DNA of 63,801 nt, the filler included, from Trichodelitschia bisporula (Eukaryota): assembly GCA_010356995.1 (NCBI GenBank). It is 4 parts of 4 records of this genome, joined end to end, with 100 filler letters (N's around TTAATTAATTAA, not from the genome) between each part and the next. Parts side by side here need not be neighbours in the genome. Positions count along the whole stretch, not along the records: positions 1 to 31,198 come from ML996713.1; 3 more parts are not named here. One strand, written 5' to 3'. The number at the start of each line of letters is the position of its first letter. Within the stretch, counting starts at the first letter, position 1. The notes below the pieces were generated by a model. The model saw only the letters and a list, made by a program, of their open reading frames with translations. It had not been told where the DNA came from and ran no database searches. This document shows positions 4,035-60,956 of the stretch, one piece after another. The translations under genes were made by a program, and so were the position numbers.

Positions 4035-4147
4035 TTGATAGGATGTGCAACTGTTGGGGCCTCTTTTCCTCTCCCATCGTCTCTTTGCCATCCCTCTCTA
4101 TCGCTTCTCTCTGCCCTTCTGCCTCCTTCCTACGACATTATCTCCCC

Positions 4148-4325
4148 GGAATGCATCGCTAAAAAAGAGACTCTCACTTGAGGAATGCATCGCTAAAAAA
4201 GAGACTCTCACTTGAGGAATGCATCGCTAAAAAAGATACTCTCACTTGAGGAATGCATCGCTAAAAAGGAGACTCCCACTTGAGGAATGCATCGCTAAAA
4301 AAGAGACGCTCACTTGAGGAATGCA
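4148..4325. repeat. 34-bp minisatellite GGAATGCATCGCTAAAAAAGAGACTCTCACTTGA x5 plus a partial unit
   Basis: Five head-to-tail units with 0-2 substitutions each and no spacers. Confidence 0.95.
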
Positions 4326-4613
4326 CCGCACCATACACCAAGAAGCATCGCGTCGCGACAGTCAAGTGTCTCATTCTCCGCATCTCGACTGGCCCTCAAC
4401 AACACACTACCAAATGCAGAGTGCCCAATGCCTACCACCCCCATCACCCCTCGCCTCATTCTTCACCACTCACATCTCGACGATTTACCACCCATCTACC
4501 CACTCACCTTTTGACTATCAGGACTCATCGCCCTATCAAAAATTCGCCGGCACCACCCTACGCAAATCTAGACTTGCACCGCCACGTCAGCCACGTCAGC
4601 CACCTCTACATTC

Positions 4614-4811: not shown

Positions 4812-5188
4812 CCCACCCACACACCCACACACCCACACACCCACACACCCACACACCCACACACCCACACACCCACACACCCACACACCCACACACCCAC
4901 ACANNNNNNNNNNNNNNNNNNNNNNNNNNNNNNNNNNNNNNNNNNNNNNNNNNNNNNNNNNNNNNNNNNNNNNNNNNNNNNNNNNNNNNNNNNNNNNNNN
5001 NNNNNNNNNNNNNNNNNNNNNNNNNNNNNNNNNNNNNNNNNNNNNNNNNNNNNNNNNNNNNNNNNNNNNNNNNNNNNNNNNNNNNNNNNNNNNNNNNNNN
5101 NNNNNNNNNNNNNNNNNNNNNNNNNNNNNNNNNCACCCACACACCCACACACCCACACACCCACACACCCACACACCCACACACCCAC
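4812..5188. repeat. (CACACACC)n 8-bp microsatellite spanning an assembly gap
   Basis: The same unit lies on both sides of the N run. Confidence 0.9.
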
Positions 5189-20436: not shown

Positions 20437-23400
20437 TCAACCTTGGTCTTGAACCCATGAGGTGGGCCCGCTGAAGAACGCGATGGAGGTCAATTTTCGT
20501 CCAAGATTTCGCGCTCTATTATATCTTTGGACTCGCCATTCCCATCGAGCTGGCCAGGCCTCCCATGGTCCCCGATCCCAGGCTGACGAAACGCCAGCTA
20601 GCATGATCAACCACCTCATCGAGCTTACCCTCACCTTTAGGGCCGTGCTCTGGATCCCCCGTAGCCGAAATCTGCTGCAGTCAGCGTATTTCTTCCCCAG
20701 AAATCTCTTAGAGGAATCTCCTCTTAACGTACTACTCTCTCTGGCATGAAGCTTGACATGATCCCAGAGTTTTTTCCAGTCCGGGTAGCAGGTCTTCGCA
20801 CAGTAGGGACAAGGAAACGCCCCATCGACATCTCTGCAGCCCCCCTGCTCCCGCGTGGAATCAATAAAGCTGAGATGCCCCTTAACATGAGAGCTGAAGG
20901 GCTTCCAATGTCTGTAGATTCCCGCACAGTAGGGGCAAGGAAGCATGTTATTGGCATCTCGGCGAAAGCACTGCTCGCCATTGGCTTCCTTTCCCTTCTC
21001 TTTTTTGGTCTTGTCATCGGCTTCCTTTCCCTTGTCTCCTTTGATCTTGTCATCGGCTTCCTTTCCCTTGTCTTCTTCGCCCTCGTCATCAGCTTCCTTT
21101 CCCTTGTCTTCTTCGGCCTTGCTAACGGCATCCAACCCAGTGCCTCCATCCCCCTGGTTGCCAGGGAATGACTGGTTGACGTGCGCGTGTTGACGGCAGG
21201 GTGGGATATAAGCAGAGGTAATAGGGAGCGTGCTCGCGTGGCTGCTCGCCGCTGTGCCTCGAGGCTTTCCCCTGTCCTCTCCGCCCTCGTCGACAACTTC
21301 CGACCTAGTAGTACCTCCGCCGCCCCGGTCGCCAGGGAATGACCGGTTGACGGGCGCGTGTTGATCGGCGGGTGGGAAATAGGCAGGGGTAACAGGGAGC
21401 GTGCTCACGTGGCTGCGAGACTCTGTGCCTAGAGGCTTTCCCCTATCCTCTCCGCCCTTGTCGACGACATCCGACCTAGTACCTCCGCTGCCCCGGTCGC
21501 CAGGGAATGACCTATTGACGGGCGCATGATGACGGTGGGGTGGGATACAGGCAGGGGTAACAGGGAGCGTGCTCGCGTGGCTGCGAGACTCTGTGCCTAG
21601 AGGCTTTCCCCTGTCCTCTCCGCCCTTGTCGACGACATCCGACCTAGTACCTCCACCGCCCCGGTCGCCAGGAGATGGCTGGTTGTCGAGCGCGTATTGA
21701 TCGGCGGGTGGGAAATAGCGAAGCTTAATATAGGGTAAATTGTCGCGGCTGATTCCTATGCGCAGATATATTCCCATATCATCTTCGGCCGTTCCATCGT
21801 CTTCCTCGGCCTTGTCGACGGCATCCGACCCAGTGCCTCCACCGTCCCGGTCGCCAGGTGATGACTGGTTGACGAGCGCGTCTTGACGGTGGGGCGGGAC
21901 ATAGGGGGTGATGAAGAGCGTGGTCACGCCGCTGCGAGACGCTGTGCCTTCATCGCCCCGGTCACCAAGGAATGACTGGTTGATGAGCGCGTTTTGAGAT
22001 GGGGGTAGGAAATGGCGAATCCTAACGTATTGTGTATTGTCGCGGCTGATTCCCATGCGTGTTTCTACTCCCATATCACCCTCGGCCATTCCATCGTCTT
22101 CTTTAGCCTGGTTGTCGACAACCCACCCAGTGCTTCTACCGCCATTGACGTCAGGAATTGCTCGGTTGACGAGCACGAATGGACGGTGGGTTGGGATGGA
22201 GCGAGGGGCAACGTATGGGGTGTAGCTAGGGCCAGTGTGGGGTACGTTGTCGACGGCACCCGACCCAGTACCTCCACCGTCCCGGTCGCCGGGGAATGGC
22301 TGGTTGGCGAGCGCGTGTTGACGGTGGGGTGGGATATAGCCAGGGCCAATGTCGGGTACGTTGTCAACGGCATCTGACCGAATTCCTCCACCGCCCTGGT
22401 CGCTAGGGAATGACTGGTTGACGAGCACATGCTGACGGTGGGGTGGGATATAGGGTGCGTTGTCGCGGCTGCGAGATGCTGTGCTTGGAGTCTCTCCCCT
22501 ACCCTCTTCGGCCTTGTCATCGGCTTCTTTTCTGCAGTCCTCTTCGGCCTCCTCCACAGCATCCAACCAAGTTCCTATACCGCCAGGGTCCCTATGAAAT
22601 AAGTGGCCAACGAGCGCGTGCTGACGGTGCGGTGGCACATAGGGTGCGTTGTCAAGGCTGCGAAATGCTGTGCTTGAAAAATCCTCCCCGTCCTCTTCGG
22701 CCTTGCCATCGGCTTCCTTTCCACCATCCTCGTCGACCTCGTAAATTGTTTCCAAACTCTGGTTTTCTCCGGCCTCATCAACGGCGTTTTTTTCCTTGTA
22801 TTCTTCGGCCTTGTCAACGGCATCCGATCCAGAGCCTCCACCGCCCGGCTCTCCAGCAAAGAACTGCCCCATGAGCCCGAGTTGGCGGTAGGGTGGGATA
22901 TAGCGAGGTGTGTTGGAAGCATTGCGGCTGACTGATACTGCGCTTAGAAATCTTCCCCTATCTACTCCGGCCTCCTAAACCGTTTCCTTTCCTTTGTCCT
23001 CCGGGGCCTTTAAAGCAATATCCGACACACGGCCCTTCTCAACGGCCTCCGACCCAAAGCCCCTGCCAACGGCATCAGGCCCAGTGCCTCCAACGCCTTG
23101 GTCATCAGAGGATAACGGGTTATCGAGCGTGTGTTGAGGGAGGGGAGCGATGTAGCGGGGAGGGACCCATGGGCGAGAGTCGTAGCTAGGAGGAACATAG
23201 TGGCGGCGGTAGGGCTCCCAGCGGGGTCTCCAAGATCCTTCGCTTGGAGACCTCACCTTATCCCATTCGGCCCTGTCATATCCGCCGCGGAGCGAGAAAG
23301 TAACCGATTCACCATCCGCCGCATCGGCTTGATCCTCATCGGCGAACCTATTTCCGCACGATGGTTGATCAGAGCCAGTGCCTCCACCGCCTTGGTCAAC

Positions 23401-25899
23401 ACGTTGCTGAGGGTGAGGGGGCCTGGAGTGGGCAGGGATATTGGGGAGCCAGAGTTGCCAGATCTGGCTCCAAGGGTCTTCGCTTGGAGACTCTCCCCTA
23501 TCTTCTTTAGCCTTGCCCTCGGTTTCCTTTCCTTTCGCCTCTTGACTCCTGTCAACCTCATCCGGCCCATTTCCAGACGGCGGTTCCTCAGCTTCCTCTC
23601 CGCTGGTGTCCTCATCCGCAGAACCGTGTCCGGGCGGTGGTTGATCAGACCCAGTGCCTCCACCGCCTTGGTCATCACGGAACTGAGGGCTGGGGGGGCT
23701 GAAGTGGGGAGGTGGGCGGTTGTAAGCATCCCAGATGGGCCCGTAAAGTGATCTGCTTAGAGACTTCCCTCCGTCATCTTCGGCCTCGTCATCGGCTTCC
23801 TCTCCCTTATCCTCTTCGGCCTTGTCAACCGCATCCAACCCACCTCCAGGCAGCTTTTCTTCGGACCCATGTCCGCCGTGGTCTGAGGAAGCAATCAAAG
23901 TATCGTCCGAGAAAGTAATCGAATCCTCATCCGGCGTATCATCTTGCCTCGAACAGGCAGAACCGTGTCCGGACTCATCCCCACCCCGGTCCGAGATGGA
24001 ATACAAATCATCCTGCTCCTCCTCGTCAGGGCCGACTCCGGGCGATGGTTGAGCCTGGGGTGGGCTGTAGTGGCGAGGAATGTACGGGGCGTAGATGGAG
24101 GGGGTCTCTGGTTCCCGTCCGGTGCTTTGCGGTTCCGTGCATGGACAGTTGCGCAGCATGGCATCGTCCGCCGTCCTCACAATCCGAAGATCCCATGCTC
24201 TCTCCCCGCCGTGCGTAGGCTTGAACGGATCGCTGGGGCGCGCGAGCAAAAAAGGCCCAACGGGCGCCGGGTTAGGCGGGAGCAGAAGGTCGACTAGCGC
24301 GGGGAAATCTGACTGAGCGGGCGCCAGATCAGCGACAGTGACGTGAGGAACGAGGGCCTGGGCGGGTGTAGAGGGTTCCTCGCAGGACGTGCCAGTTGGT
24401 GTGGTCCAGGAGTTGAGTTGAACAACATCGTCATCTTCCTCTGAGTCTTCAGGAGTGAGTGTCAAATCCCACTCGTGGTTCGCAGCTAGGGTCAATTGTA
24501 TGAGCCAGGGGTATGTGCCCACCTTCGGCGCCGTTGTGGTGACGGGTGGAGCGGGCACCGTTTTGGTGACAGGCGGAGCGGGCTTCGGTGGGGCGGTGGA
24601 GGATTGAGAGGGGGTGTGCGGTCCCTTGCTCGGGCCGTGAGATAGTGCGCTCGGAGCGCTGCACGGAAGGGAGTTGTCTGCAGAGGAAGACTGAGCGCGT
24701 TCTGGCTGGCTCTGCTGAGCCACGGGAGGTTGCCCATGCTGAGGCACGAGCGATTGCCCATGCTGAGGCACAAACGGCTGGGCATGTGCAGACACGAACG
24801 AATTTCCATGCTGAGCCTTGAGCGGTTGGCCATGCGTAGGCACGTATGGTTGTCCATGCTGAGGCGCGAGCGGCTGACCATACTGAGGCACGAACGGATG
24901 ACCATGCTGAGGCATGAACGCTTGGCCATGCTGAGGCACGGGCAGCTGGTGACTTTGCCAGTAGCCCGGGAGCTGAGCAGGCCCCAATTGGCCATAATGA
25001 GGCTCGAAGGGGTTGTGAGGTGCGAATGGGCCCTGACATCCAAATGGGCCGTGAGGCCCAAATACGCCCTGAGGCCCAAATACGCCCTGAGGCCCAAATA
25101 CGCCCTGAGGCGCAAATAAGTGCTGAGGCGCGAATAAGTGCTGAGGCGCGAATGGAAACTGAGGCGCGAATGGATGCTGAAGGGGCGGGGGGTTGGAGCC
25201 GAAGCCGGGGGGTACACGGGGGACTTCGCGGGCAAAAGGGTCTGTCTCGTGGAAGCTGTACGCCCATTCGCGCTGAGTAGTGGCATCTTCCGGCCTTGCG
25301 AAATAGAAATTTGCGTTGCCGCTCCACACGGGCGGGGGCGGCTCGGTGGCTTGCCCTGGGAATTCGGGACCTCGCTGGCCATACTCAAATGCGTGGGGCT
25401 GTATGGGTGGTGAAGTTAGCCGCCGGCCGTGGGGTATACGGGGGACTTTGCGGGCGAAAAGGCCTCTCCGGTAGAAGTCGTGTGCGGATTCGGGTAGAGT
25501 AATGGCATCTTCCGGTCTTTCGAAGTCAAAATTTGCGTTCCCGCCCCACACGGGCGGGGGCGGCTTGGTGACTTGCCCTGGGAATGCAGGGCCTCGCTGG
25601 CCATACTCGGGCGCGTGTGAATGGATAGGTGGTATCGTGGGTCGCCCGCCGCGGGGCCAGAGATATGAGCTGGGCTGTGCGATGTTCGAGTCGGGATAAT
25701 GGGCTCCACCGGTTGTGGGACAAAGGGACCGACGTGTACCGGCTCCAGGACGGGAGGACTGACTTCTACCGGCTGCAGGACAAGAGGCCTGACCTCTACC
25801 ATTTGTAGAACGAGAGGAATGACCTCTACCGGTAGATCTCCCGGCGGATGGTTGGTTCTGAAGGTTCTCAGCGGCGTCTTTATTGCTAGACGGGTCCAT
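20437..25899 (-). CDS. Very large multi-repeat protein (FAPQ and PQHGQ repeats, ~50-60-aa Y[IV]PPHRQ repeats, two C-terminal C2H2 zinc fingers) interrupted by one in-frame TAG at 22977-22975
   Basis: ORFs 22975-26052 and 20437-22872 are in the same frame. The 34 codons between them are open (EAGVDRGRF...PRYIPPYRQLGL) and follow the repeat consensus. CPYC-x12-HVKGH and CPYC-x13-HVKLH lie at the C-terminus. Confidence 0.7.
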
Positions 25900-26857
25900 T
25901 GTAATAAGATAAAAACTAATGACGGGTAAATCTGCTTCTAGAACTAGTGATTGATGTTCTCGGTATGAATCTTGCTGTGAGACAATGAGGGCGGAGATGG
26001 TGTTTTTTTTCCATCTCTGTTGGCAGGTGGAAAGAACGGTCTTGACGATCATACAGCCAGACTACTTTCTTTCCGTTTCTCGCAGTATGCAAGTGCTGTA
26101 GGACCGCGATGCAAGTGGCACTGACCTAGCAGTCGTGGCGGCCACGGCGCTCGTGGTGACTGCCAAACACAACCGACCGTTCTGGACCGCCGAGCAGGGG
26201 AGATAGGTCCTAATCCCATCCCGGGGAGTGTGAAACCTCGCACTTGGTTAAGTTAGCTTTGCAGAGTATGTGTATCAGTGAGAATACCCAGGCTAAATGA
26301 TATTCGAAGACTTGTGTCCCTGCAAGTGGCGTCACGGATAGCCTTACACGTGATCTCCTCTCTCAGCCTCGTCCCTCATCTCTCAAGCCCTGATCAAGAT
26401 AATACTCACCCACCTTCTCAATAAGCCCGGAGCACACTCCTAGCCCCCAGCTGCGTCATCGGCCTGCAGCCACCAATTACTTTTACCATTTAGATTTACA
26501 CGTCACTTCATTCAGCACATACGGCCATAGGTCGGAGAATGCAACTACGTTCGCGTTCCCAATTTGGTAAAACTCTGAATTTAGACTAGCGTCAGACATC
26601 CTCTGTCGTCAGGTGGCGAATATTGTACAATTAAAGTTGCCATTATTAAGCGCGGGACTACGGAAGGGAACTGTCGATTCTGCTTTTCAACTTTTCAAAA
26701 CTTCAGGACGACGAATATGGCGTCCTTAGATGCCTTCGGTAGGGGCGCTGTTAGATGGTCCTTAGGAGGGCTGGGAGGCAAACTGCTTAATGCTCTGACT
26801 TAAATCTCCCCGAAGACCAGTGCGGGTTCAGAAGTCAACCTTCTGCCCTCGATCTCA

Positions 26858-27658
26858 ATGTCGACGCACAACTTCGCTCACCTTCTCTCTAGGCTGAAAA
26901 GCCTCCGATATTCCTAATGGAGATGCACTTTTCAGTGACCCTAAAAAGTGTATGGCGGAGGCTGACCCTGAGCTGGTTATGTTGTTCCTGAAATGGACTC
27001 TGGACACGCAAACGAGAATCCGAAAAGGGATAACTATTACGGCCTACTATGACCGGGTGGCACGCCGCTCAAAGGCAAATGCCACATCACCGAATGTGGA
27101 GCCTTGAGTACAGGAAGCGGGTTCTTTCAGTAAGAAACTCATCTTGATAAACTCAAAACTAATTTTGTATAGTTCATCTCTTTGGATTCAGCCTCTGAGC
27201 ATGGACTCAGTAGAGAACGGCAGCCGAAGCCTGTCCTAAGCTTTGCCGATATGGCCATCCTTCTCAACCACCTTTGGAAATGGGACAGGCTGCAGTATAC
27301 CAACGAGAGATTACGAGTCCAAGTGGCCTTGGTTATACTGATTTCGATGACTACGGCAACAAGGCCAGCGGCATTGCTAGAGCCGGTGTACGCCAAACAA
27401 GGTCATGGGGAACTACCCAAAGTTCTTCGTTATGAGCATGTCAGGCTCCTTAGTCCGCGATTCCGAACGGATGAGACAAAAGTTGGTTCTGGGAATCAAC
27501 CTTGTCTTTCACAAAGGATACGAGCGAAATCCCAGACCGCAAGTAACTTCAGTTTGGCATTTACATGCTAATAATCTTCTACAAGAACCACCCGCATTCT
27601 TACCGAGATAGAGGAGCCCATCTTTGATCCTAGAATACTCCTGCTGGTTCTCGCATTC
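26858..27658 (+). pseudogene. DUF3435 tyrosine recombinase (Starship 'captain') 5' fragment, frameshifted and truncated
   Basis: KPVLSFADMAILLNHLW...NERLRVQVALVILISMTTATRPAALLE...LRYEHVRL/LVRD...LVLGINLVFHKG, then EEPIFDPRILLLVLAF. These match the catalytic-Arg and KG blocks of DUF3435. It has an internal deletion relative to copy B, frameshifts, and ends at an LTR. Confidence 0.8.
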
Positions 27659-27799
27659 TGTTAAAATGAAGTGCGAACTTGACTGAGTTGCTTGATCGAC
27701 TAGCAGTGGAAAGTGAGCTGACGATATACCTCGCCAGGAGACGACCCCTGTCTCCTGGCTCCGCTCCAGCCACCCCAGGTTGCCGCCACAAATTCAACA
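27659..27799. mobile_element. 141-bp LTR-like element (TGTTAAA...TTCAACA) with mismatched flanks CATTC/TATCT
   Basis: Homologous to 54576-54716, which has a perfect TATCT target-site duplication. Confidence 0.75.
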
Positions 27800-28253
27800 T
27801 ATCTCCTCCATCAGAACAGTCTGTATGCTCCGTCTGTCCCTCACTGCTCTGCCAAACTCCCACCCAAAACCATGACCGCCACTCCGGCATCCTCCTGAGC
27901 CTGTTTATGCTCGAGCCCTGGCCAGTCTCGATATCTCGTACAGCATCTACGACGCGGGCACAGACGACGCAAGCAGCGTGGGCGGTGCAACATGGATAAA
28001 CAACCGGGTATGTCCTCCAGCGAAGTCTTCGTCTATGAACTGATCAGTTCGTAGGAGAACTTGATGCCCCGTAGCATGTGGCTGTGTCTCCAATCTCGTC
28101 CTCTCCGCGCCCGACAGCTCACAGCCTCATTCTTGGCATTCTGCCCCGCAGTTGAGCTCAGCTCGAAGCCCCAAAGCCTCGCCTTTAACCTCCAGTTCCA
28201 CTCCTGCATTTTCACAAGTCCGCAATTTCTTGACTAGCATCATTATTTCCAAG

Positions 28254-31198
28254 ATGCCACCTGCAAAGCGAATCCGGGCACGGGGCCACTTCTGTGCCTC
28301 TTCCGGCCTTTCACGACCCTCCTCACCTGTTGCTGGCGAGACCACCACGCCTGCCCCCGCGAGCAGTGTCGGCCAGACCTTATCTTTACCACTTGCCCCT
28401 CAGAGAGCCACTAACAGTGGGCCAGCCCGCCGACTTCGTCATGAAGACTATACAATAGGATGGATATGCGCTCTACCGATGGAACTTGCGGCAGCTCAAG
28501 AGATGCTAGATGGGGAACATCAGAGTCTCCCTCAGAACGCGGCTGATTCCAACGTCTATGTGCTTGGCTGCATCGGTGGACATAATGTCGTGATTGCGTG
28601 CCTACCCGTAGGCCAAATGGGAACCAATGCGGCAGCCTCGGTTGCTGCCCAGATGCAGTTGGCATTCAGCTCTGTCCGGCTCGGCCTGATAGTGGGCATC
28701 GGAGGTGGTGTGCCGAGCACAGCTGATGTACGGCTTGGGGATGTCGTCGTCAGTCAACCGTTCAAGGATCATGGCGGAGTAGTGCAGTACGACTTCGGCA
28801 AGACGACACCAGACAAGTTCGAACGGACTGGATCCCTCAATTCTCCCCCACAGGTCTTCTTGAAGGCGATAGCAAGCCTAAAGGCCAATAACCTCCGAGA
28901 GAGAGTCGGGTTCTTACACTCTCTTTCGAAGCTCGCCCAGTACCCAAGATTTGCACGGGACGAAGCCGGACCAGATGATTTATACCACGTTACCTACAAT
29001 CATGAGGGAGGACCTGACGACTGCCAGAAGTGCCGGAAAGAGTACGTGGTACGGCGGCAGCCGCGCGGCGAGGATGTTGTTGTCCATTACGGCACCATAG
29101 CCTCCGGGAACCAAGTCATGCGCGATGCCAAGGAACGAGACAAAGTCAGCAGGAAGCTTGGAGGCGTACTCTGCTTTGAGATGGAGGCGGCGGGGCTCAT
29201 GAACAGTTTTCCGTGCCTTGTTGTGCGGGGAATATGCGACTACTCTGACTCGCATAAGAACAAGAGCTGGCAGCCGTACGCGGCGGGGACGGCGGCAGCG
29301 TACGCTAAAGAGCTTCTATTGTTGGTTCCACCGGCCAAAGTCGAGATGCCAGAATATCCATCCGCGCCGGCAATGCTCCTAAACTTGCCCAGGGCTGCAG
29401 ACACACCATCCAACCCATACGAGCGGAAAAAAGCGTCTTGCCTGATTGGTACCCGGGTCGAACTTCTCAAAGAGATCTACGGCTGGGCTTACGGGGAGAA
29501 TTCGCCAAATATTTTCTGGTTGAGTGGTTTAGCTGGCACCGGCAAGTCCACCGTGGCTCAAACTGTGGCCGCTGAATGTTTTCAGAAGGGAAGGCTTGGA
29601 GCCAGCTTCTTCTTCTCGCGAAGTGGCGCAGATGTCCGGCATGCCGGCAAGTTCGTGACAAGCATCGCAGCGCAACTTGCAGACAATGTGTCGGGGGCAA
29701 AGCAGTCTCTCTACAAGGCACTGGAGGAAAGGGATACCATCACTGAAGAGCCTATCCGCAGTCAGTGGCATCATCTCATCCTCGGTCCCATGTCGAAGCT
29801 TGAAGGCGACACCTCTGCTCCGTACATCCTGGTAATCGATGCCCTGGACGAATGCGAGGGCGAGGACGCCATAAGGGAAGTTCTGGATCTCTTTCGGTTG
29901 CTGAAGAAAACCCGGCTCCGGTTGTTTTTAACGAGCAGACCTGAAGTGCCAATCCGATCTCCGTTATCCGAAATGCCAACAGGCGAGCACCTGGACTGTG
30001 TGCTCCACAGAATTGAGAAGTCGACTGTTGACAATGATATCCGCTTCTTCCTACGACACGAGTTCGAAGGTCTAGCCCGGGAACGCTCTGTTGGCAAAGA
30101 TTGGCCAGGCAAGCAAGTCATCGACACCCTTGCCCAGAAAGCCAGTGGCCTGTTCATCTGGGCTGAAACCGCATGCCGCTTTGTTCAACAAGGCAGAACA
30201 TTGGCACCCAAGAGACTGCGCTTGATCCGCGACCAAGGCCATAGTGCTACGAAAGGGCCAGAGCAGCATCTCGACGAGATCTACGCGACTGTTCTTCGCC
30301 AATACTTTTCCAACTATGACGATGATGTGGAGGAGCTGCGATCGACACTAAAGGAATTGCTTGGAACCATCGTGATCCTGTTCGATCCACTTTCGATCAT
30401 GTCCTTGAGCGAGCTACTCATCCAGAATGTAGCTCTGGCACTGGATGACCTTCACGCCATTTTGGACATTTCAAAGGAACCAGGCGACTCACTCCGTTTA
30501 CATCACCCTTCGTTCCGTGACTTCATTCTCAATCCAGAGAGAAGCGGGAAAACAGGACTCTGGGTCGATAAAGAGGAGGCGCATCGAGCCCTTGCCACGA
30601 AATGCATACAGGTAATGTCTAACTTCCTCAAGCAGGATATGCTTGGAATAGGTCGGCCTGGAGTACTCAAGACTGAGATCGAACGTCATAGGGTTGAAGG
30701 GTCCCTCCATCCTGAGAAGCAGTATGCATGCCTCTACTGGATACAGCATCTTCATAAGAGTGGATCTCAGCTCAATGATGACGGTGAAGTTCATCAGTTC
30801 CTGAAGGAGCATCTCCTTCATTGGCTTGAGGCGCTTGGATGGATGCAAAAGGTTTCCGAAGGGTTCCATGCCATCGTGTCTTTGGAGTCCATGATATTGG
30901 TAAGCTGGACGTAAAGCAGAGTGGGGATACTTGGCTGATACTTGGCTCAGGCGCAGAGGTGTCCCCGACTATCGGAGTTTGTTCATGACATGAAACGATT
31001 TGTCCTCTACAACCGGTCAGCCATCGAACTAGCTCCCTTGCAGACATATTGCAGCGCGCTGGTATTTTCCCCGACAGCAAGTCTTGTAAAAAGGCGGTTT
31101 CAAAGCAAAATGCCTCTGTGGATGCCCGGACTACCGCAGGTTAGGGACAACTGGGATGCCTTGCTGCAAACGCTCGAGGGCCATTCGGGGTCGGTCTT
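28254..31198 (+). CDS. NLR: PNP_UDP_1 (purine nucleoside phosphorylase) - NACHT - WD40 (HET-E-like), truncated by the gap; intron 30900-30950
   Basis: DYTIGWICALP, VGIGGG, RLGDVVV, CFEMEAAG, RGICDYSDSHKNK; Walker A WLSGLAGTGKST; Walker B ILVIDALDEC; TSRPE; GLFIWA; HHPSFRDF; YACLYW; first WD40 LQTLEGHSGSV. Confidence 0.93.
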
Positions 31199-31298
31199 NN
31201 NNNNNNNNNNNNNNNNNNNNNNNNNNNNNNNNNNNNNNNNNNTTAATTAATTAANNNNNNNNNNNNNNNNNNNNNNNNNNNNNNNNNNNNNNNNNNNN
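31199..31298. other. Artificial contig linker (N44-TTAATTAATTAA-N44)
   Basis: The same 100-bp construct occurs at 56617-56716 and 60857-60956. Confidence 0.95.
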
Positions 31299-34221
31299 CA
31301 TTTTCGATTCGATTGCAACGATGCGCTCGAATAGCTCGATCGCCTCGCCTATTCGCCCGTCTTTAAGGTATGCGCTCGCGAGTTGGTGCTGCGATCCTAG
31401 ACGGTCTGAATGATCTTCCCGCAGTACTTGCGATTGGATTGCAACGACGCGTTTGAGTAGCTCGATCGCCTCGCCTATTCGCCCGTCTTCAAGGTATGCG
31501 CTGGCCAGGTAATGCTCCGAATCAAGAGTTGCTGCATCATCTTCTCCGGAATTTTCTTTTCTCCATTTGAAAACTTGCTCATACCAGTATATACACTCCC
31601 GGAGTCTCCTATCCCACATAAAGAAGTGCCCAAGCAGCTTGCATAGGGTGTAATGGCTGGCCAAGTCTTCGCCCTGAGCAGATTGAGCAACTTTTAACGC
31701 GTGGGGCAGGTATTCTCGACACATCGGCATGTTGTCATAGCTGTCCTGGGCATCTGGAAATGCATCCGCAAGGTGCTCCACCGCCTCTTTTCTCGCCTCC
31801 TCTTTCACCAGGGGATGCTTGTCAAGCCAAATCTTGGTCGCCTTTTGCACGAGTCTGTGCATGTCGTACATGTCTTCGTCCCGTTTGGTGAAGAAAGCGT
31901 ATCCAAGAAGGGTACCAATGGCCCTCACCAGTTGTTCTTCGGGCGGCACTAGGGGCAAGATCGACCGAGGTATCGCCTTTGGCTCAATGTAAGACACGAA
32001 GGCAAGGAGGTCGGCAGCTGTTTGATCCGTCAGGCGAATGTGCTCGAACGACACAATCCATGTGTTTGCAATGGCGTTTGGAGCGCCCCGGGGTCGTGTG
32101 AGGTCGAGGAACTCGGCGCTCATGAGATTGGACATATCTTGGTCGGTATTCCTCAGGAGGTGCAAATATCTGGAGATCGACAGCTTGTTTCTGTTGAGGT
32201 AGGCTGCTGCTTGTGCGATCGCCAAAGGGAGGAATGCCAGTTCAGTCAAGAGCTCGTCCGTGATCGAAGGTTTGGAAAGCAAGGTTTTGTCAAGCAAGGA
32301 ATTTGCCAAAAAGTCAAGCGAGTCTCTCTTGCTCATTTCACCCAGTGAAATGGCTCTATCACGCCCCAGGTCCTCTGCAATTTGCCTTACACGCGTTGTG
32401 CAAAGGACAAAGCCGTTCGCGCTTTTCGGAAGAAAATAGGCAATATGCATGGACGGATCGGCGGATAGAGAAAAGATATTCGCGTCGTCGACGTTATCAA
32501 CAATCAAAAGCCAGGGCCCTGCCATTTCGCCACTTAGGTACTCCTTCACCAACTCCTTCACGTCCTTGTCCTTTTCGTTCTCTGAAAGGATCGACAACTC
32601 CCTTGCGATACTGGAGCAGTCTTGAGTAAAGATTGCCGCGCTCACAGCGGAAACCCAAAATACAGAGCACTGAGGATGGTTCTCTTTCACCCAGTAAGCG
32701 AACTGCAAGGCGATTTGCGTCTTCCCAGTGCCGCCGAGGCCGTGAATTGCCACCATTCGGTTGGTTTTGTCTGCGAAGAGGCCTTGGACCTTCGCGAGCT
32801 CAGCTTTCCTGCCGACGAAGTTTTCGTTTGGTTGAGAGGGAATGAAATAGGTCGCTTTGGGGGCACAATCTTAGACATTTAGTCAGGCTGCAAAGCAACT
32901 TAGGTTTGACGCTCACCTTTGGATGAGCCATCCATGGCTAGCCGAGGATCCTCAGGCAGTCGAGAACCAATTTCAGGTGACCGGGCCAAGTCAGTATTAG
33001 CCGTTGCAATGAATTTAAAGACTTACTCCACTAGCCTCCAGTGCATCACGGATCGTGTTTAGGACCTTCAGGTAATTGGAATCTTGTCTGCTGGTGTATT
33101 TGCAAACACCATGATGATCGGCCTGCAAGGACATGTACATTTCCCCGGTACACATAAGTCTAGCCGAGCCTTTGTCCACGACCTGAACCTTGCCCGGAAA
33201 CTTGCGGCTCAGTTGGGCGAATAAGGGGGTCTCCAAAGTCTCCCAGAAGGACGCAAGAAAAAGCTTGCCCGTGTGGTGGCGGAAACCTTCGTTAATGGTT
33301 TCCAAGGTCTCCGAATTTCGTTCCAGACTGTGCCTAAACTGGGTGTCTGAAAGGACGACTGACACTGAAATGAGCTTCCCGAGCAATGGGGCCGCGTCAG
33401 AGCCGATATGGGGCGTCGACAGAAAGATCATAGCATTGACGGAGGAGCCGATTCGGAGGTATTTTGGGTTGCTTTGGGCATTTAGGGCATCGATGTATGC
33501 TTTTTTCACGACCAACCCTCCCATTGAGTGGGCAACAAACAGAATAGGCATGGCTCCGATTTCGTGGCTTTCGCCTGTATCATTATTTCGGCTACGAGCC
33601 ATCAAGGCCAGTAGGTCCATGGCGAAATTCCCAATAGTCTGGTTGTTGGCTTCGGTCGACAGCCAATCCGCGTTGTATCCAAAGGTGAAAATCCTGGCCT
33701 TTTCCATGCCAAGCTCTTTCGGAAGCCATTCACCTGGCCAGAAGAGCTCCGGTGTGCCGTCTTTGGCCCAGGTTGCATGGCTTGAACCGCCTAGTCCGTG
33801 AACGAATATGATATCCACAGCGGGAGAACCGCTTGGCGCCGCGACGAGGGTTAGGGTGCGCAAGTTTGGTAGCGATGTGGGAACAACCGTCTCGCGGCCT
33901 GTGGGGCCGGGACTCGACGATGATCGTGGCACGCGCTGCTCGCTGGGCTCGGTGGAGGGCTGGCCGACGGAGGGACGGAGTGCGACATGATTATCAGCTG
34001 CGCCAGACTTGGTCCCGTCACCGGCTTCATCGCGTTTCTTGCCAGGTTTAGGCCTTAGTATGTTCCGAAATTTTCTCTTGAACACAGTTAGTAAGGACCA
34101 AAAGCAATGGTGGAAAGAGCTCAGATACAGTGAATACAACTGCACCACAAATGGGAGTGAAAACGGCATACATCGGCCTTAAGGAGCAAGGGCAGTTGTA
34201 GCGAAGGAGAATACGTACCAT
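31299..34221 (-). CDS. NLR: alpha/beta-hydrolase (SesB-like/PGAP1-type lipase) - NB-ARC - TPR, multi-exon, truncated by the gap
   Basis: DIIFVHGLGG, FWPGEWLP, RIFTFGYNA, FVAHSMGGLVVKKA; Walker A HGLGGTGKTQIA; WLLIVDNVD; FLPLAIAQAAAY; MHRLVQ; 42-aa TPRs (LASAYLEDGRIGEAIELL). ATG 34221 is followed by a GTACGT intron (34218-34077); further introns lie near 33026-32870. Confidence 0.9.
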
Positions 34222-48882: not shown

Positions 48883-50882
48883 ATGAGCTCTCCTTATAAT
48901 TCCCTGAAGGGAACCGATCATTTCAGAGTGGTCGATGTTTACCCTGGGAAAATCGGAGAGGAAATCCACTGCACCCTGCGAACGGTATCACCACATGACA
49001 AGCCGCAATACGAAGCCGTCTCGTATACGTGGGGGAATCAGGATCACACAAAGAAGATACTGCTCAACGGTGTCGCGTTCGACGTCACAGAGAACTGCGA
49101 GCAATTCCTGCAGTACTTTCGTTACGAAATAGAACAGCGCCCTTGTGGGTTGATACCATCTGTATCAGCCAGAAAGACATGTACGAACAGGGCCACCAGG
49201 TGTCCATGATGGCCGAGATCTTCGAGGGCTGCGAACGCTGTCTTGCTTGGCTCAGCCCTCCCAACCGAGACCTTGCGATAAAGCCAGAGTCAGAGTCGAC
49301 ATGGTCGAAGTTGAAGAGCAAACTGCGCGCCAGAATGGCACCGGACGAAAACTCAGGCCTGTCGCGGCGTAACGCAATCGCCGAAAGAGATGACGACGAC
49401 CCCTTCATCTTCTTCAAACACTTCCTCGCCAACAAACATTATCACGAGCTTCCTGGATTCAGAGCTGCATGGACTCTGCGGGGCTGGAGAATCGTATTGC
49501 CTGAGACGAGCGCCTTCTATGTGCTATGGTCAAGAACCCGAGACATCTTGACGCGGCCGTGGTGGAAAAGGACTTGGTGCGTACAAGAAGCCGAGCTGCC
49601 GAACCAGGTGATACTCTTTTGTGGCCATCTCTCCATGGCCTTGCAAGACCTCAGGGCTGCCTAGTGAATTTTCAGCGAACATTGCCAGGACTGCTGTTCC
49701 GGGGCGTATTCTCGGCCTCCTTTTGGTACCACTTTGGAACCCGACTCACTCGTCTTTTACCATAGTCTCGTCCGCGAAATGCCACTCAGCGAATTGCTAC
49801 GTAGATGGGCCTACAGGCAGTGCCAGGACGAACGTGACAAAGTATTCAGGGTCCTCGATCTGGCAAAAACCCCCCAACGCAGTATCCCCACAAACTACCA
49901 TCAGAACGCGGGGGTGGTATATCGCCTAGCAATGCAAGAAATCATACGCCAGATGCCGAGAGATTTATCTTACTTGACCGGAAGTGGCTTTTCATTCGCA
50001 AAAGCACGACATGCCATCTTGGGTCAAGGATCCCTCTCAACCACAAAGTTTGGATGATTCGAAAGACGGTACATATAGGGAAATGTCTTACAGGCTTTAC
50101 AACGCCTCGGCAGACCTGGACAGCCAGTTACAAGATGCGTTTCCGGGAGCCCGGCTTTATGACGTCCATTCCAGAGTGCTCGGGATGAATGGCTTTTGTG
50201 TGGGCGCCGTGACCCAACTCGGTGATGCCGACCAAGACAACAGCTGGAAAGAGTTTGCGGAGCTCTTCGAAAATTGGCACCGAATCGCAGGCATATCGCC
50301 GCTTGCGAGCAAGACCATCGCAGACTGACGCTTGCAATCCGACTTTTGGCGCACAGTAATTGCTGATTATGTGTTCTCCAGCGAAACACAGCCCTCGATG
50401 CGACGCTTGATGATGAGAGGGATATGGCTCAGTACAACTCATTAATACATCAGCACTTTCGCGTCGGGAAGCGGCCCAGTAGCCTGGTGTCACACGGGGT
50501 AGGGTATATGGCTACGCAGAATGACTCCCATGAATCTGTGTATGTCTCTATGTACCGGCAGCGGTTCTTCGTCGCGCAAGCAACCAAGACCGATGGGTCA
50601 GCGATCTCGGCCTTAGAAACGCAAGCCGATTCTCAATCAGTCAGATACGGAAAGGGTGGTTCCAACATTGAGGTCGGAGATCAAATTTGGATCCTAGCTG
50701 GTGGAAGAGTACCCTTCATTCTCCGGCCTGTCAAGGACCCGGCTTGTCCGGACGACCTCCCCCATGATGACGGAGATGTCCGACCGTGCTATCATTTTAT
50801 TTCAGAATGTTATCTCCACGGTGCAATGGATGGGGGCATCTTGGGAGACAATGGCAAGGTCAGCAAAATTTTGCTGGTGTAG
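48883..50882 (+). pseudogene. HET-domain (HET-6-like) gene disrupted by frameshifts and stops
   Basis: YEAVSYTWG, then a frameshift near 49140 into LWVDTICISQ...QVSMMAEIF; RPWWKRTWCVQE; TAG at 49662; CQDERDKVF; PSWV; TGA at 50326; GDQIWILAGGRVPFILRP...ECYLHGAMDG. Confidence 0.85.
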
Positions 50883-51959
50883 GAGGATTTGTTGCTTCAT
50901 TCGCGTGTGAGGCGGCCGTTTTTCTTGCTATGAAGTCGTGTATCAAGCTTTCCAAATTCTGTATGCCACTTTCGATCTTAATGATGAAGAGACAGCGCAG
51001 AGAAGAATACAAACCTTTGAAGCGGCATAGTTGAATTCGATTTCAAAGCTGCTCGCACCCTTTCAGGGGCTCCCTCCCCGTTCCCAAAATCTTACCACGG
51101 ACCTCCGCAAGCCGTCGTCTTCATCACGACCGGCCGACAGGCTGACTGATCCAGCGCAAAACACGCTTACACTGCTCATGCCACCACCCCACAGGCTTTC
51201 AACTCCCGCCAGTCTCCATCCCCGGCCATTTTACGGACCTCACTTCTCACGTACGCGACGCCCCCACCGACGCCCACACATTTCAACCCCTTTTCACCTT
51301 CCCGGCACCATTTTGCGTCCTCCGAGCTGCGCCGTGCCTCCCAGACAGCACCCGCTCTCCCTACTCCTGATATGGACCACCGCCATCGTCTTCCACGGCG
51401 CGAATCCCGCCGGCCATGTCCGTCCCACCCCTCGCCAAAGTATCTTTCCCCGAGCCCCCAGGGACAATGGGCAGGCCCGGCCAAATTTGTGCGCGTCCGG
51501 GTGTGGGGTGGGATATGCCGTCGGGGCCGTTGAGTCGATAGGGGTGAGGCGGAGGAGTGAACGACGGGTACATTAAATAATGTTACCAGTATATCAATTT
51601 TACTGCAATCAACCAGCACATACGGCCATAGGTCGGAGAATGTATCTATGGTCGCGTCCCAATTTGGTAAAACTCTGAATTTGCACTGCCGTCATATATC
51701 CTTTGTCATTAGGCTTGGCGAATATCGTCCAATTAAAGTTGCCATTATTAAGCGCGCGACTACGTAAGGGAATTGTCGATTCTTCTTTTCAACTTCTCAA
51801 ATTTCCAGGACGACGAATAAGGCGTCCTTAGATGCCTTCGGTAGGGGCGTTGTTAGATGGTCCTTAGGAGGGCTAGGAGGTAAACTAGTTAATGCTCTGA
51901 CTTAAATATCCCCGAAGACCACTGCAGGTTCAGAAGTCAACCTTCTGCCCTCGATCTAA

Positions 51960-52724
51960 ATGTCGACGCAAAACTTCGCTCACCTTCTCTCTAGGCGGAA
52001 AAGCCGCCGAGTGGAGGCAAGATACTCAAAATCGTCAAAACACAACCTGAGCCGAACCCACCATCAATGGAAAGAGTTCTGTGAAGCTGCACGAACCTCC
52101 GATATTCCTAATGGAGATGCACTTTTCAGTGACCCTGAAAGTGTATGGCGGAGGCTGACCCTGAGCTGGTTATGTGTTAGACGGATTCCCATTTGTTACA
52201 GCCTTCTGATATTGTAAGTTCCTGTATCACTTCGCGCTCGGTATCTTTGTAGCCGGTATCCGTTAGCGCTCGGGATTGCTTACCTCCGTTGTCTTGTTTC
52301 ATCGTATCTTTGACGCGACGCCACTCCCGTTTCATACTTCCTATATAGTACGAGTTGCCCACATGGTACACTCGACAGTTCAGTCTACGTCAATCAACAG
52401 AAACCTTTGTTTCATCTGTTCTCAGCTTCTTCAATCCAACATTATGTTGTTCCTGAAATGGACTTTGGACACGCGAAAGGGAATCCGAAAAGAGATAACT
52501 ATTAACGTCTACTATGACCGGTGGCACGCCGCTCGAAGACAAATACCGCATCACCGAGTGTGGAGCCTTGAGGACAGGAGGCGTGTCAATTCAGTAAGAG
52601 ACTCATCTTGATAAACTCGAAATTAATTTTGTATAGTTCATCTCTTTGGATCTAGCCTCTCAGCATGGACTCAGTAGAGAACGGCAGCCGAAGCCTGTCC
52701 TAAGCTTTGCCGATATGGCCATCC
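51960..52724 (+). pseudogene. DUF3435 captain N-terminal fragment, interrupted by a solo LTR and truncated by a second LTR
   Basis: MSTQNF...HQWKEFC...SDPESVWRRLTLSWL|MLFLKWTLD...IRKEITINVYYDRW, then an intron, then FISLDLASQHGLSRERQPKPVLSFADMAIL. Homologous to 26858-27260. Confidence 0.75.
52175..52441. mobile_element. 267-bp solo LTR with 5-bp TSD TTATG
   Basis: TGTT...AACA termini; TTATG at 52170-52174 and 52442-52446. Copy A has the empty site (GGTTATGTTGTTCC). Confidence 0.9.
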
Positions 52725-52960
52725 TGTCGGCATACCCGATGTCGTGTTACCCAGAAAGGCAGGCTTGGCACGGCGAACACCGAAGTGGCCAAGATGGACG
52801 ACGCCGGAAGTCCGATGGACGACGCCGGAAGTCCGATGAAGTTCAGGAACATCCTGGAGACCCATCACGGATATATACTGTTCATTCTGTAAACTAGAGA
52901 AGGCAACAAGCTGGGCAATCAATCTTTTCTCACACAATTCTTTGAGCACTTCCGCCAACA
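52725..52960. mobile_element. 236-bp LTR (TGTCGGC...GCCAACA) without TSD
   Basis: Imperfect terminal inverted repeats and an internal 21-bp duplication. The left flank is captain sequence (CATCC) and the right flank is copia RNase H (TCTGC). Confidence 0.7.
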
Positions 52961-53364
52961 TCTGCCCCATGTATTCCGCTTCGCATGATGACAACGCAAC
53001 AACACTCTGGCGCTTCGATGATCAGCTTACTGCTCCACTGCCGAGGTTGAAGATGTATCTGGCCGTTGATCGCCTCGTGGATGAATCCCCAGCCCAGTCA
53101 GAGTCGGTGTAACCAGCCAGAGCCTCCAGCGATCCGCGGTACACAAGTTCCACCTCCATGGTGCCCCGAAGGTAGCGAACGATCCTCTTGACCGCCGTTT
53201 CGTGCTGGGGTCCGGGGTTCGCGAGGAAGCGACTGCAGATGGAGACAGCGTATGCGATGTCGGGTCTAGTACCAAGCATGGCGTACATGAGGCAACCGAT
53301 CGCTTTGGCGTACCAGGTCTTGAGGCTCTGAGGGGCCTGGAAGTCATCGGGTGCTGGCACGATC
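52961..53364 (-). mobile_element. Ty1/copia pol fragment (RT end to RNase H start)
   Basis: IGCLMYAMLGTRPDIAYAVS, GYTDSDWAGD, RRST, then a stop, then SSKRQSVVALSSCEAEY. Confidence 0.93.
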
Positions 53365-53964
53365 TGTTAAAAGGGGGTGTGTGGTCAATGGAAACTGTTG
53401 AAAGGGTGATGCGTGATCAACAGAAACGTCACTGCATCACAAGTTGGACCGAAGGTCTGTCCATGAACAAGTTGCTTAATTGTCAAAGAGGTGGGGATCC
53501 CGAGTCTACTTATACCCGAGCCCTGTGGCTGAACCTGGGTAAGGCTGAACACAGCCACCGCTTTCCAACACTCCCCCTCAGACGAAACCCAGTGAAAAGG
53601 CGAGGGGTACGCTCACAAAGACACGAAGCTCCCATATGGACAGACGGCCAGGCCTCGTTAAAACCCTCTGTGAGGGAAAGAGTGCCTGGACTTGCACAAG
53701 GAGGGGCGGCAGATAGATTGATCCTCATGGTTCCCTTCTCCCCCTCACCTGGTGCGAGCCCATTCAAGACCCAATGCCTCCCTGAACTGTTCGAAGCGAT
53801 CCTTTGGCAAGGCTTTTGTAAGGCCATCAGCAACCCGCTTCTCTGGAGGTCAATCTCTCCGGATGCCTGCTTCTCCCTGACGTAGTGGTGCTGAATGCCT
53901 ATGTGCTTTGTTCTCGGGTGAAACTGCGGGTTCTTGGCCAGGGCGATCGCTCCTTGGTTGTCGC
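53365..53964 (-). mobile_element. Ty1/copia 3' end: RNase H C-terminus, polypurine tract (53580-53571) and 3' LTR (53570-53365)
   Basis: Minus strand DNQGAIALAKNPQFHPRTKHIGIQHHYVRE...ADGLTKAL, then TGAGGGGGAG directly followed by TGTTGG...TTAACA. Confidence 0.9.
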
Positions 53965-54137
53965 TGTTGGAATGCGGTGGCTGTGTTCAGCCTCACCCAG
54001 TTCAGCCACAGGGCTCGGGTATAAGTATACTCGGGGTCCCCACCTCTTTGACAATTAAGCAACTTGTTCATGGACAGACCTTTGGTCCAACTTATGATGC
54101 TGTGATGTTTCCATTGATCATACATCCCCTTTTAACA
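53965..54137 (+). mobile_element. Second copy of the same copia LTR in inverted orientation, no TSD
   Basis: TGTTGGAATGCGG...TTTAACA is the reverse complement of 53365-53570, with an internal deletion. Confidence 0.88.
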
Positions 54138-54575
54138 CCGCAAACGAAGAGGTGGTGGAATGGGGTACTTGCGAGGCCGGGAATGCGATAGATACGGGCC
54201 ACATGGGTCCGCTTGATAGACGGGAGGAGCCGCTAGGCTAGTTCGAGGGGAGCTAGGCGCCGTCTATCACTTCAACCTTTTGCCAATGTTGGTCTGTTGA
54301 CGACAAGCTGTGGAGTTGTGGATGGACAATCGTTTCTCCTCGATGGGGATGAGGCCTTTCCTTCGTAGTTGGAATGGCCGCACGCTCCCGCGGGCTCAAT
54401 TGTTCCACAATACTGTATGTTTCTCGAGTCCCGCGCTGAAGACACGATACAATATGACTGATATGATGTCGTCTGCTCAACTCCAATCGAGCCTTTAATC
54501 CAGCACCAGGACGCTTGCTAACACCCATCTTACACATTATCCGGCCACCTCTTCCACAGAATCAACTACGTATCT

Positions 54576-54716
54576 TGTTAAAATGAAGTGTGAACATGAC
54601 TGAGTTGCTTAATTGACTAACAGTGGGAAGTGAGCTGACTATATACCTCGCCAGGAGACGACCCCTACCTCCTGGCTCCGCTCCAGCCACCCCAGGTTGC
54701 CGCCACAAATTCAACA
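54576..54716. mobile_element. 141-bp solo LTR with 5-bp TSD TATCT
   Basis: TATCT-TGTTAAA...TTCAACA-TATCT. Confidence 0.82.
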
Positions 54717-55176
54717 TATCTCCTCTATCAGAACAGTCTGTATGCTCCATCTGTCCCTCACTGCGCTGCCAAACTCCCACCCAAAACCATGACCGCCACT
54801 CCGGCATCCTCCTGAGCCTGTTTATGCTCGAGCCCTGGTCAGTCTCGATATCCCGTACAGCACCTACGATGCGGGCATAGACGACGCAAGCAGCGTGGGC
54901 GGTGCAACATAGATGAACAACCGGGTATGTCCTCCAACGAAGTCTTCGTCTATGAACTGATCAGTTGGTAGGAGAACTTGATGCCCCGTAGCATGTGGCT
55001 GTGTCTCCTTCAATCTCGTCCTCCTCTCCACGCCCGACAGCTCACAGCCTCATTCTTGGCATTCTGCCCCGCAGTTGAGCTCAGCTCGAAGCCCCAAAGC
55101 CTCGCCTTTAACCTCCAGTTCCACTCCTGCATTTTCACAAGTCCGCAATTTCTTGACTAGCATCATTATTTCCAAA

Positions 55177-56616: not shown

Positions 56617-56716
56617 NNNNNNNNNNNNNNNNNNNNNNNNNNNNNNNNNNNNNNNNNNNNTTAATTAATTAANNNNNNNNNNNNNNNNNNNNNNNNNNNN
56701 NNNNNNNNNNNNNNNN
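56617..56716. other. Artificial contig linker
   Basis: N44-TTAATTAATTAA-N44. Confidence 0.95.
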
Positions 56717-60856: not shown

Positions 60857-60956
60857 NNNNNNNNNNNNNNNNNNNNNNNNNNNNNNNNNNNNNNNNNNNN
60901 TTAATTAATTAANNNNNNNNNNNNNNNNNNNNNNNNNNNNNNNNNNNNNNNNNNNN
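60857..60956. other. Artificial contig linker
   Basis: N44-TTAATTAATTAA-N44. Confidence 0.95.

Follow-up and report, generated by a model that had tools for sequence, protein, structure and literature searches.

Decayed 5′ ends of a probable Starship-like element in 5S rRNA genes, with NLR genes behind them, on two scaffolds of Trichodelitschia bisporula

Why do two regions of a fungal genome share, in the same order, a leader, a broken recombinase gene, a 141-bp long terminal repeat (LTR) and an immune-receptor gene, when the sequence to the left of each is unrelated? The question arises in a stretch of 63,801 nucleotides from Trichodelitschia bisporula (assembly GCA_010356995.1), hereafter the window. 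From positions 26517 (copy A) and 51618 (copy B) onward, it carries a remnant of a DUF3435 tyrosine-recombinase gene, the captain of Starship transposons, together with a gene for a NOD-like receptor (NLR). A sequence-only reading of the window had proposed the derelict left end of a Starship, present twice at one locus and delivering an NLR each time. We find that A and B are probably the 5′ ends of a Starship-like, 5S ribosomal DNA (rDNA)-targeting DUF3435 element with an NLR behind the captain, that the captains have decayed, and that, with the same degree of confidence, the two are members of a set of several such 5′ ends in T. bisporula.

The window is a chain of separate small T. bisporula scaffolds, and copies A and B lie on two different ones. 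The joins consist of 44 N, TTAATTAATTAA and 44 N, at 31199-31298, 56617-56716 and 60857-60956, and TTAATTAATTAA is a six-frame stop linker. Any feature that seems to cross or stop at a linker is an artefact. Two of the joins bound the regions discussed here:

31199-31298, no strand: artificial linker between scaffolds (44 N, TTAATTAATTAA, 44 N)
56617-56716, no strand: artificial linker between scaffolds (44 N, TTAATTAATTAA, 44 N)

Scaffold A ends at 31198, and scaffold B occupies 31299-56616 (25,318 bp). Both scaffolds end inside the NLR gene, so that 4.7 kb of the unit is visible in A and 5.0 kb in B.

A repeat search combined with BLASTN of the stretch against itself resolved the likeness between the copies into four collinear blocks:

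26513-26908 = 51614-52010, + strand: block 1, 90.2% identity
26902-26986 = 52096-52178, + strand: block 2, 96.5% identity
26977-27261 = 52442-52725, + strand: block 3, 90.9% identity
27659-29690 = 54576-56616, + strand: block 4, 84.5% identity over 2059 columns

Identity is uneven along the unit, ranging from 79.9% to 97.1%. Stretches of 85 bp, 267 bp and 1851 bp are present in B and missing from A, and 27262-27658 is present in A and missing from B. The 5S and leader part (26517-26908) is 90.8% identical to copy B, with 18 transitions and 18 transversions, and hence no transition excess of the kind left by repeat-induced point mutation. The self-comparison revealed no other similarity between the two regions outside the four blocks, and none upstream of 26508 in A or 51609 in B (E<1e-6). 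The proposed four-part order of leader, DUF3435 remnant, 141-bp LTR and NLR is therefore present in both regions, and the homology does not extend upstream, as the sequence-only reading had it. Its span of 26483-29690 needs adjustment: the interval is collinear, with its left limit at 26508-26517 rather than 26483, and the right limit at 29690/56616 is no biological boundary, because the homology stops where scaffold B ends. Nor do the copies share a locus, being on two scaffolds that only the linkers join.

What sits at the left limit? Both copies open with ACATACGGCCATAGGTCGGAGAAT, the start of a 5S ribosomal RNA (rRNA) gene, which breaks off and gives way to a leader:

26517-26540, + strand: copy A, 5S rRNA gene nt 1-24, ending in a break (22/24 against metagenome locus L023)
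26541-26857, + strand: copy A, element leader between 5S break and captain ATG (similarity to B; rise in read depth at ~26520)
51618-51641, + strand: copy B, 5S rRNA gene nt 1-24, ending in a break (comparison with genuine 5S genes)
51642-51959, + strand: copy B, element leader (similarity to A)

5S genes for comparison were taken from metagenome contigs with a loose pattern derived from ACATACGGCCATAGGTCGGAGAAT, which returned at least 122 loci; of the 122 listed, 114 continue into the conserved 5S box, as judged with a separate loose expression for that box. The exact 24-mer had no match in the metagenome contigs. Complete 5S rRNA genes were confirmed by Rfam at 12 of the 16 loci tested (79-86 bits, cut-off 38), each beginning one base ahead of the pattern match. 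The best of the loci listed, L023 (5S_rRNA, 86 bits), agrees with the stretch at 22 of 24 positions over 5S nt 1-24, identity at the fished positions being by construction, and at 4 of 16 over nt 25-40. With up to three mismatches allowed, nt 1-24 of L023 match the whole stretch at two places and no others, 26517 and 51618, and 100 shuffles yielded no match. No 3′ part of a 5S gene occurs in the window, including the interval between remnant and NLR, and Rfam reported no family for the whole window at the gathering score.

The position of this break is that of a known target. The published Voyager target is GCCCTGTATTCT (PMC9156397, which, like the other papers cited by PMC number, is represented here by excerpts). 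Its reverse complement, AGAATACAGGGC, corresponds to nt 20-31 of L023, and in both copies the break follows AGAAT, inside this 12-nt site; this concerns the left junction only. Among 222 curated Starship insertion sites, 23% lie in 5S rDNA, at no fewer than five target positions (PMC11162782). At its left junction, each copy thus has the fixed internal 5S site that marks the 5S-targeting kind. As a separate observation, two metagenome loci, L005 and L105, carry the first ~24 nt of 5S followed by non-5S sequence after GGAGAAT, and may be similar insertions in other fungi.

The gene that follows the leader is a recombinase remnant in both copies:

26858-27658, + strand: copy A, DUF3435 tyrosine-recombinase pseudogene, N-terminal third (Pfam, tblastn, custom profile, reading frames)
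51960-52725, + strand: copy B, captain pseudogene remnant, interrupted by LTR2 and cut at 52725 (custom profile, tblastn, reading frames)

The captain ATG lies at 26858 in A and 51960 in B, on the + strand, ~317 bp inside the 5S break and reading inward. Of 42 open reading frame (ORF) pieces, one (27173-27568, +) matches the Pfam family DUF3435 (E 4.1e-5, profile positions 3-55 of 418); the N-terminal captain piece gave no Pfam match. A full-library HMMER search with the 27173-27568 piece found 71 proteins at E<=1e-3, the top four being short fragments. Among full-length relatives, identity in the matched region does not exceed 46%, and a 246-aa fragment, P0127, is 38-41% identical. All nine relatives tested contain a DUF3435 domain (75-371 bits). 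When 18 relatives, full-length DUF3435 proteins, were used in tblastn, they matched the stretch only at 27140-27540 and, weakly, at 52625-52726. A custom profile built from 16 relatives (646 positions) extended the match in A to collinear segments at positions 13-53, 79-164, 165-198 and 196-220, with a frame change, and matched B at positions 23-56 and 76-105 (E 8e-4); DUF3435 in B is detectable with this profile and not with Pfam. No intact recombinase catalytic domain was found, nothing matching further downstream of the remnants, and frameshifts are present. Three longer relatives turned up among 454 candidates, none of them from T. bisporula. Two introns are predicted in the captain of A, at 27128-27172 and 27546-27592. 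The first is without RNA support: contigs of two runs that are only guessed to be RNA (X3 and X4, with no cover on 25800-26339) pass through it unspliced. With a recombinase gene placed first, reading inward and joined to 5S sequence, the idea of a DUF3435 element whose 5′ end forms the left part holds.

Are there more copies than these two? Annotated remnant fragments are found on other scaffolds: P0194 falls in the 90% cluster of the A piece, P0124 at ~90% and P0125 at ~60%. P0124 (KAF2399618) stands two accessions before the NLR P0204 (KAF2399620) on the same scaffold. The P0124/P0204 pair is a third collinear copy, so that the genome has at least one further copy on another scaffold. For two DNA runs (X1, X2), contigs were aligned to the stretch at >=80% likeness; the runs that cover it well all come from one organism. 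Single-copy flank depth is 244 and 414, up to ~26520, beyond which summed contig depth, which is not a copy number, amounts to 8-18 times the flank over leader and captain and 16-47 times over most of the NLR. The read depth shows that the family is multi-copy. In one contig, of another copy, the match begins at 26517 and is preceded by 241 unlike letters; a second contig, from a run guessed to be RNA, matches 27429-27658 and continues for 324 letters unlike A, so that there may be a copy with a less shortened captain. A DNA contig of 1493 nt spans 26517, from unique flank into the unit, with no mismatch.

How were the captains broken? Much of the answer involves LTRs, which account for most of the remaining features between captain and NLR:

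27659-27799, + strand: LTR1 in copy A, 141-bp solo LTR with TGTT..AACA ends; flanks CATTC / TATCT, no duplication
54576-54716, + strand: LTR1 in copy B, 141-bp solo LTR with a perfect 5-bp duplication, TATCT / TATCT
52175-52441, + strand: LTR2 in copy B, 267-bp solo LTR, TGTTAG..CCAACA, 5-bp duplication TTATG; empty site in A
52726-54137, no strand: copy B retroelement debris, with a copia-like pol fragment and an inverted pair of a third LTR
54138-54575, + strand: copy B, 438 bp natively left of LTR1 (from the LTR1 duplication), absent from A

In A, 85 coding bp have been deleted after 26908, between short direct repeats; one nucleotide has been gained at ~27055 and two lost near 27445, and the gene stops at 27658, abutting LTR1. 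Other copies in the read data differ from A precisely at the ~27055 and ~27445 lesions. Copy B keeps the 85 bp lost from A and has lost one nucleotide near 52135. These copy-specific lesions, together with the unrelated flanks, fit separate insertions followed by independent decay of the captains, in keeping with the sequence-only reading.

The 141-bp repeat was also correctly recognised as an LTR: it has TG..CA ends, a perfect 5-bp duplication in B, dispersed copies and very high read depth. Over LTR1, summed contig depth is ~261 times the single-copy flank value in X1 and ~209 times in X2; at both of its edges, 27659 and 27799, contigs run out into sequences of mixed kinds. LTR1 is a high-copy solo LTR, although the window holds no copy beyond those in A and B. 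In B it is a clean insertion 455 bp ahead of the NLR ATG, and the perfect duplication identifies 54138-54575 as its original left flank; in A the left flank is foreign. Seven of the nine A-B differences within LTR1 fall in its first 65 nt and two in its last 76, a skew for which Fisher's test gives P=0.08 for the LTR alone and P=0.006 with the 453 nt downstream included. The non-matching flanks in A and the clustering of differences are consistent with LTR-LTR recombination. We infer that a further member of this LTR family had landed in the captain of A, and that recombination between it and the LTR ahead of the NLR deleted the interval between the two.

The debris in B includes a copia-like pol fragment at ~52890-53366 (-), whose nearest Atlas clusters are AtMg00810-like / RVT_2 (scores 0.91-0.92); Pfam gave no match on the copia-like ORFs of B. 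A third LTR family (TGTTGGAA..TTTTAACA) is present there at 53396-53570 and 53965-54137, as inverted copies 395 bp apart and 91% identical.

Is the NLR cargo of the element, and is it intact? In both copies the gene that comes next after the remnant encodes a PNP_UDP-NACHT NLR, and LTR1 stands 455 bp ahead of its ATG:

27800-28253, + strand: copy A, NLR upstream region and 5′ untranslated region (UTR) with an intron at 28008-28054 (GTATGT..TAG); 97.1% identical to B
28254-31198, + strand: copy A, NLR gene with PNP_UDP_1 and NPHP3_N/NACHT (Pfam), frame open to the scaffold end
54717-56616, + strand: copy B, NLR upstream region and NLR (ATG 55177) with PNP_UDP_1 and the start of NACHT (Pfam), cut by the scaffold end

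Pfam detects PNP_UDP_1 (E 5.6e-13) and NPHP3_N/NACHT (E 4.2e-30) in both copies. A joint at 28006->28054, seen in one contig of X4 only, marks the 5′ UTR intron, and a joint at 30897->30950, seen in X3 and X4 only, marks an intron at ~30900-30950. After this second intron the frame 30951-31196 is open to the end of scaffold A, which means that the NLR of A is also incomplete. The C-terminal exon piece (30951-31196) had no Pfam match, and the repeat domain is not in the stretch, the scaffolds ending first; the paralogue P0004 carries WD40 domains. The claim that the cargo ORFs stayed open is accordingly true of the parts present, both NLRs being cut by scaffold ends.

The closest proteins to the NLR are all T. 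bisporula paralogues, at 79-89% identity. The NLR of B is the annotated protein P0202 (KAF2395499), identical over 138 of 138 and 149 of 149 residues; P0204, on a 1.0-Mb scaffold, matches it at 97-98% identity. In A, the PNP domain is 97% identical to that of P0003 and the NACHT part only 82%. Between A and B the ratio of nonsynonymous to synonymous divergence (dN/dS) is 0.22 overall. Synonymous divergence (dS) varies sharply along the gene: 0.18 in codons 1-60, 0.85-3.7 in codons 61-360 (the PNP domain), 0.18 in codons 361-420 and 0.024 in codons 421-480. In the comparison of 28254-29690 with 55177-56616, the PNP_UDP domain is saturated synonymously, and the 5′ end and the NACHT start are nearly identical. 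Judged from the sequences, this pattern indicates that the NLR copies are mosaics produced by effector-domain exchange or conversion among paralogues. Simple twin deliveries of a PNP-NACHT receptor, as first proposed, do not describe a gene in which dS is 0.02-0.18 in some parts and 0.85-3.7 in others. Summed depth over the last 300 nt of scaffold A (30900-31198) exceeds 100 times the single-copy flank; very many genes have this segment in common, which is probably the reason that the scaffold ends there.

How does the unit compare with known elements? The 5S-targeting Starships Voyager, Arwing and Enterprise have a DUF3435 first gene reading inward and integrate inside the 5S gene ~20 nt from its start (PMC9156397, PMC11162782). 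Both traits are shared here, the first by way of a remnant, as are the occurrence of several copies per genome at different 5S genes and the presence of NLRs, which belong to their conserved accompanying genes. Unlike in Voyager-type Starships, the first 4.7-5.0 kb alone are visible, and what remains of the captain is its N-terminal third, ~200 residues long. A supplementary tree in PMC9156397 (Fig. S4) contains three other T. bisporula DUF3435 homologues, which could not be related to this lineage, and we found no publication naming both Trichodelitschia and Starship. NLR capture and movement by Starships have already been published (PMC9156397, PMC13449251). PMC9156397 applies 'Starship-like' to DUF3435 sequences co-localised with DUF3723, FRE, PLP and/or NLR genes whose duplications are unconfirmed. 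Both copies, with a DUF3435 remnant followed by a PNP_UDP-NACHT NLR, match this description, and by published definitions each is a Starship-like region, not a confirmed Starship. The earlier label 'derelict' fits loosely, as the excerpted text of PMC9156397 uses it for regions with no DUF3435 at all, and a remnant is kept here. An inactive Voyager of Botryosphaeria dothidea has an LTR insertion in its captain (PMC9156397), and LTRs disrupt captains here too (LTR2 in B, the LTR1 junction in A); the LTR-LTR recombination proposed for A is specific to the present case.

The other constituents have their own counterparts. Fungal PNP_UDP-NACHT-WD40 NLRs include the NWD-type family of Podospora. 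The T. bisporula gene shares with such NLRs its domains, many close paralogues, segment exchange and association with transposable elements (PMC13449251), and differs in that its repeat domain lies outside the stretch and that it stands directly behind a captain remnant. With typical solo LTRs, LTR1 and LTR2 share TG..CA ends, short inverted termini and, in B, 5-bp duplications, and LTR1 also their high copy number. At 141 bp LTR1 is very short in comparison, no full-length parent was seen, and in A it is without matching flanks.

On the favoured reading, an active element that already carried LTR1 and the NLR would have integrated into different 5S genes, after which each captain would have decayed independently. 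In A, an 85-bp deletion between short direct repeats and two frameshifts may have been joined by an LTR insertion in the captain; recombination of that LTR with the one before the NLR would have removed the rest of the captain and left a single LTR with non-matching flanks. In B, the captain would have suffered a frameshift and a solo-LTR insertion, and copia-like debris would have taken the place of everything from residue ~150 onward. Segments would later have been swapped between the NLR copies and paralogues.

Several points weigh against this reading. The Pfam check for DUF3435, which the sequence-only reading had asked for, was positive in A at 23.2 bits, below the cut-off of 25.8, and in B succeeded only with the custom profile; no catalytic region is left, and no intact captain of the lineage was found in protein searches. 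No right end, direct-repeat pair, terminal inverted repeats or empty site was seen in the visible unit, the scaffolds ending 4.7-5.0 kb inside it. Rfam at E<=10 reported no 5S on 26300-26900, 26450-26545 or 51550-51646, a silence that the shortness of the 24-nt fragment explains at both junctions. The pattern used for fishing the 5S genes came from the stretch itself; what is independent of the fishing is that the fished loci are 5S genes, that the match starts at their first base and that the stretch departs from 5S after nt 24. Summed depth, as noted, does not count copies, and the element may not have the same orientation as Voyager with respect to the 5S gene. The mosaic NLR, finally, shows recombination among paralogues, so some of the collinearity could come from conversion, not transposition.

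Three other explanations were considered, and each loses weight through the 5S +1/+24 junction that unrelated sites have in common, through the recurrence of one NLR lineage behind the remnant at two 5S sites, with an NLR also standing two accessions after a third remnant, and through the DNA contig that joins the unique flank of A to the unit without mismatch. A dead DUF3435 gene lying beside an NLR might have been copied by segmental or ectopic duplication through dispersed 5S genes or LTRs, with no transposition by the recombinase. The NLR family is large and recombining, and both NLRs are mosaics, as the dS contrast between ends (0.02-0.18) and PNP domain (0.85-3.7) and the mixed affinity of A to P0003 (97% in PNP, 82% in NACHT) attest; the uneven divergence along the unit (79.9-97.1% identity) and the lack of a known right end or empty site agree with such an origin. 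It would, however, require that no fewer than three copies (A, B and one contig) all have their boundary at 5S +1, with a break at the published Starship target position, through 24 nt of 5S that is too little for homologous recombination. Each captain has lesions of its own, so that the gene may still have been alive at the time of copying. We regard duplication of this kind as unlikely.

That the recombinase came without cargo, as a small Crypton-like element or cargo-less captain in 5S genes, and that the NLR is merely a neighbour, seems very unlikely. Such an origin would suit the mere ~1.1 kb of element-specific sequence visible before the LTR and the 438 bp left of LTR1 in B that have no counterpart in A. 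A chance neighbour would not be expected to be of one NLR lineage, bearing a common LTR insertion, at two 5S sites, or to stand two accessions after the remnant on a third scaffold; all nine tested relatives, moreover, carry full DUF3435 domains, and the 3′ 5S part is missing between remnant and NLR. An assembly artefact, in which alleles, haplotigs or a mis-joined repeat make one locus look like two, is barely credible: both copies do sit at the edge of a small scaffold whose end falls within a repeated gene, but their flanking genes differ, the copies are 80-97% identical and have large copy-specific insertions, and the 1493-nt DNA contig crosses 26517 without a mismatch.

If A and B are 5′ ends of a 5S-targeting, Starship-like element, they add one more wrecked example of NLR-carrying, 5S-targeting Starships, from a poorly studied coprophilous Dothideomycete. 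The 5S junction provides a sharp, checkable marker for finding all copies in the genome. The copies also record the death of the captain, by LTR insertion in one and, in the other, by an LTR-LTR recombination that would have fused the captain stump to the region upstream of the NLR. An NLR directly behind the captain in several copies of a paralogue-rich family makes the contribution of Starships to the growth of an NLR repertoire testable with a complete assembly. More speculatively, a compact 5S-targeting Starship lineage with an NLR directly behind its captain might, through integration into many 5S genes, have seeded some ten NLR copies across the genome. These would then have recombined among themselves and with other paralogues, which would explain the mosaic PNP domains. 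We consider this scenario rather doubtful; if it were true, Starship transposition would be one main engine of an expansion of this NLR family, and captain-less copies might still move in trans as non-autonomous units.

The genes to the left of the two copies are ordinary ones and differ between A and B. The left flank of A contains genes for a response-regulator protein, an FMO-like protein and a DUF4360 protein, and long repetitive ORFs. Directly left of the copy, 20437-26061 (-) holds two very long ORFs of 845 and 1028 codons, without a Pfam match and made of periodic repeats of 36, 24, 171 and 222 nt; the region looks like a large repetitive protein gene. The left flank of B encodes an NB-ARC-TPR NLR, a TauD protein, a GRAM/VASt protein and a HET-domain protein. 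The NLR, at 31299-34178 (-), is of a different type from that behind the captain remnants (DUF676 lipase-like, NB-ARC, TPR) and is cut by the start of scaffold B. HET-domain ORFs are located at 48999-49664 (+) and 57067-57906 (-). Ordinary N gaps occur at 4904-5133 and 57975-58253, and a 34-bp tandem repeat in 6 copies and an 8-bp microsatellite, at 4114-4363 and 4814-5188, lie to either side of the N gap in the first scaffold.

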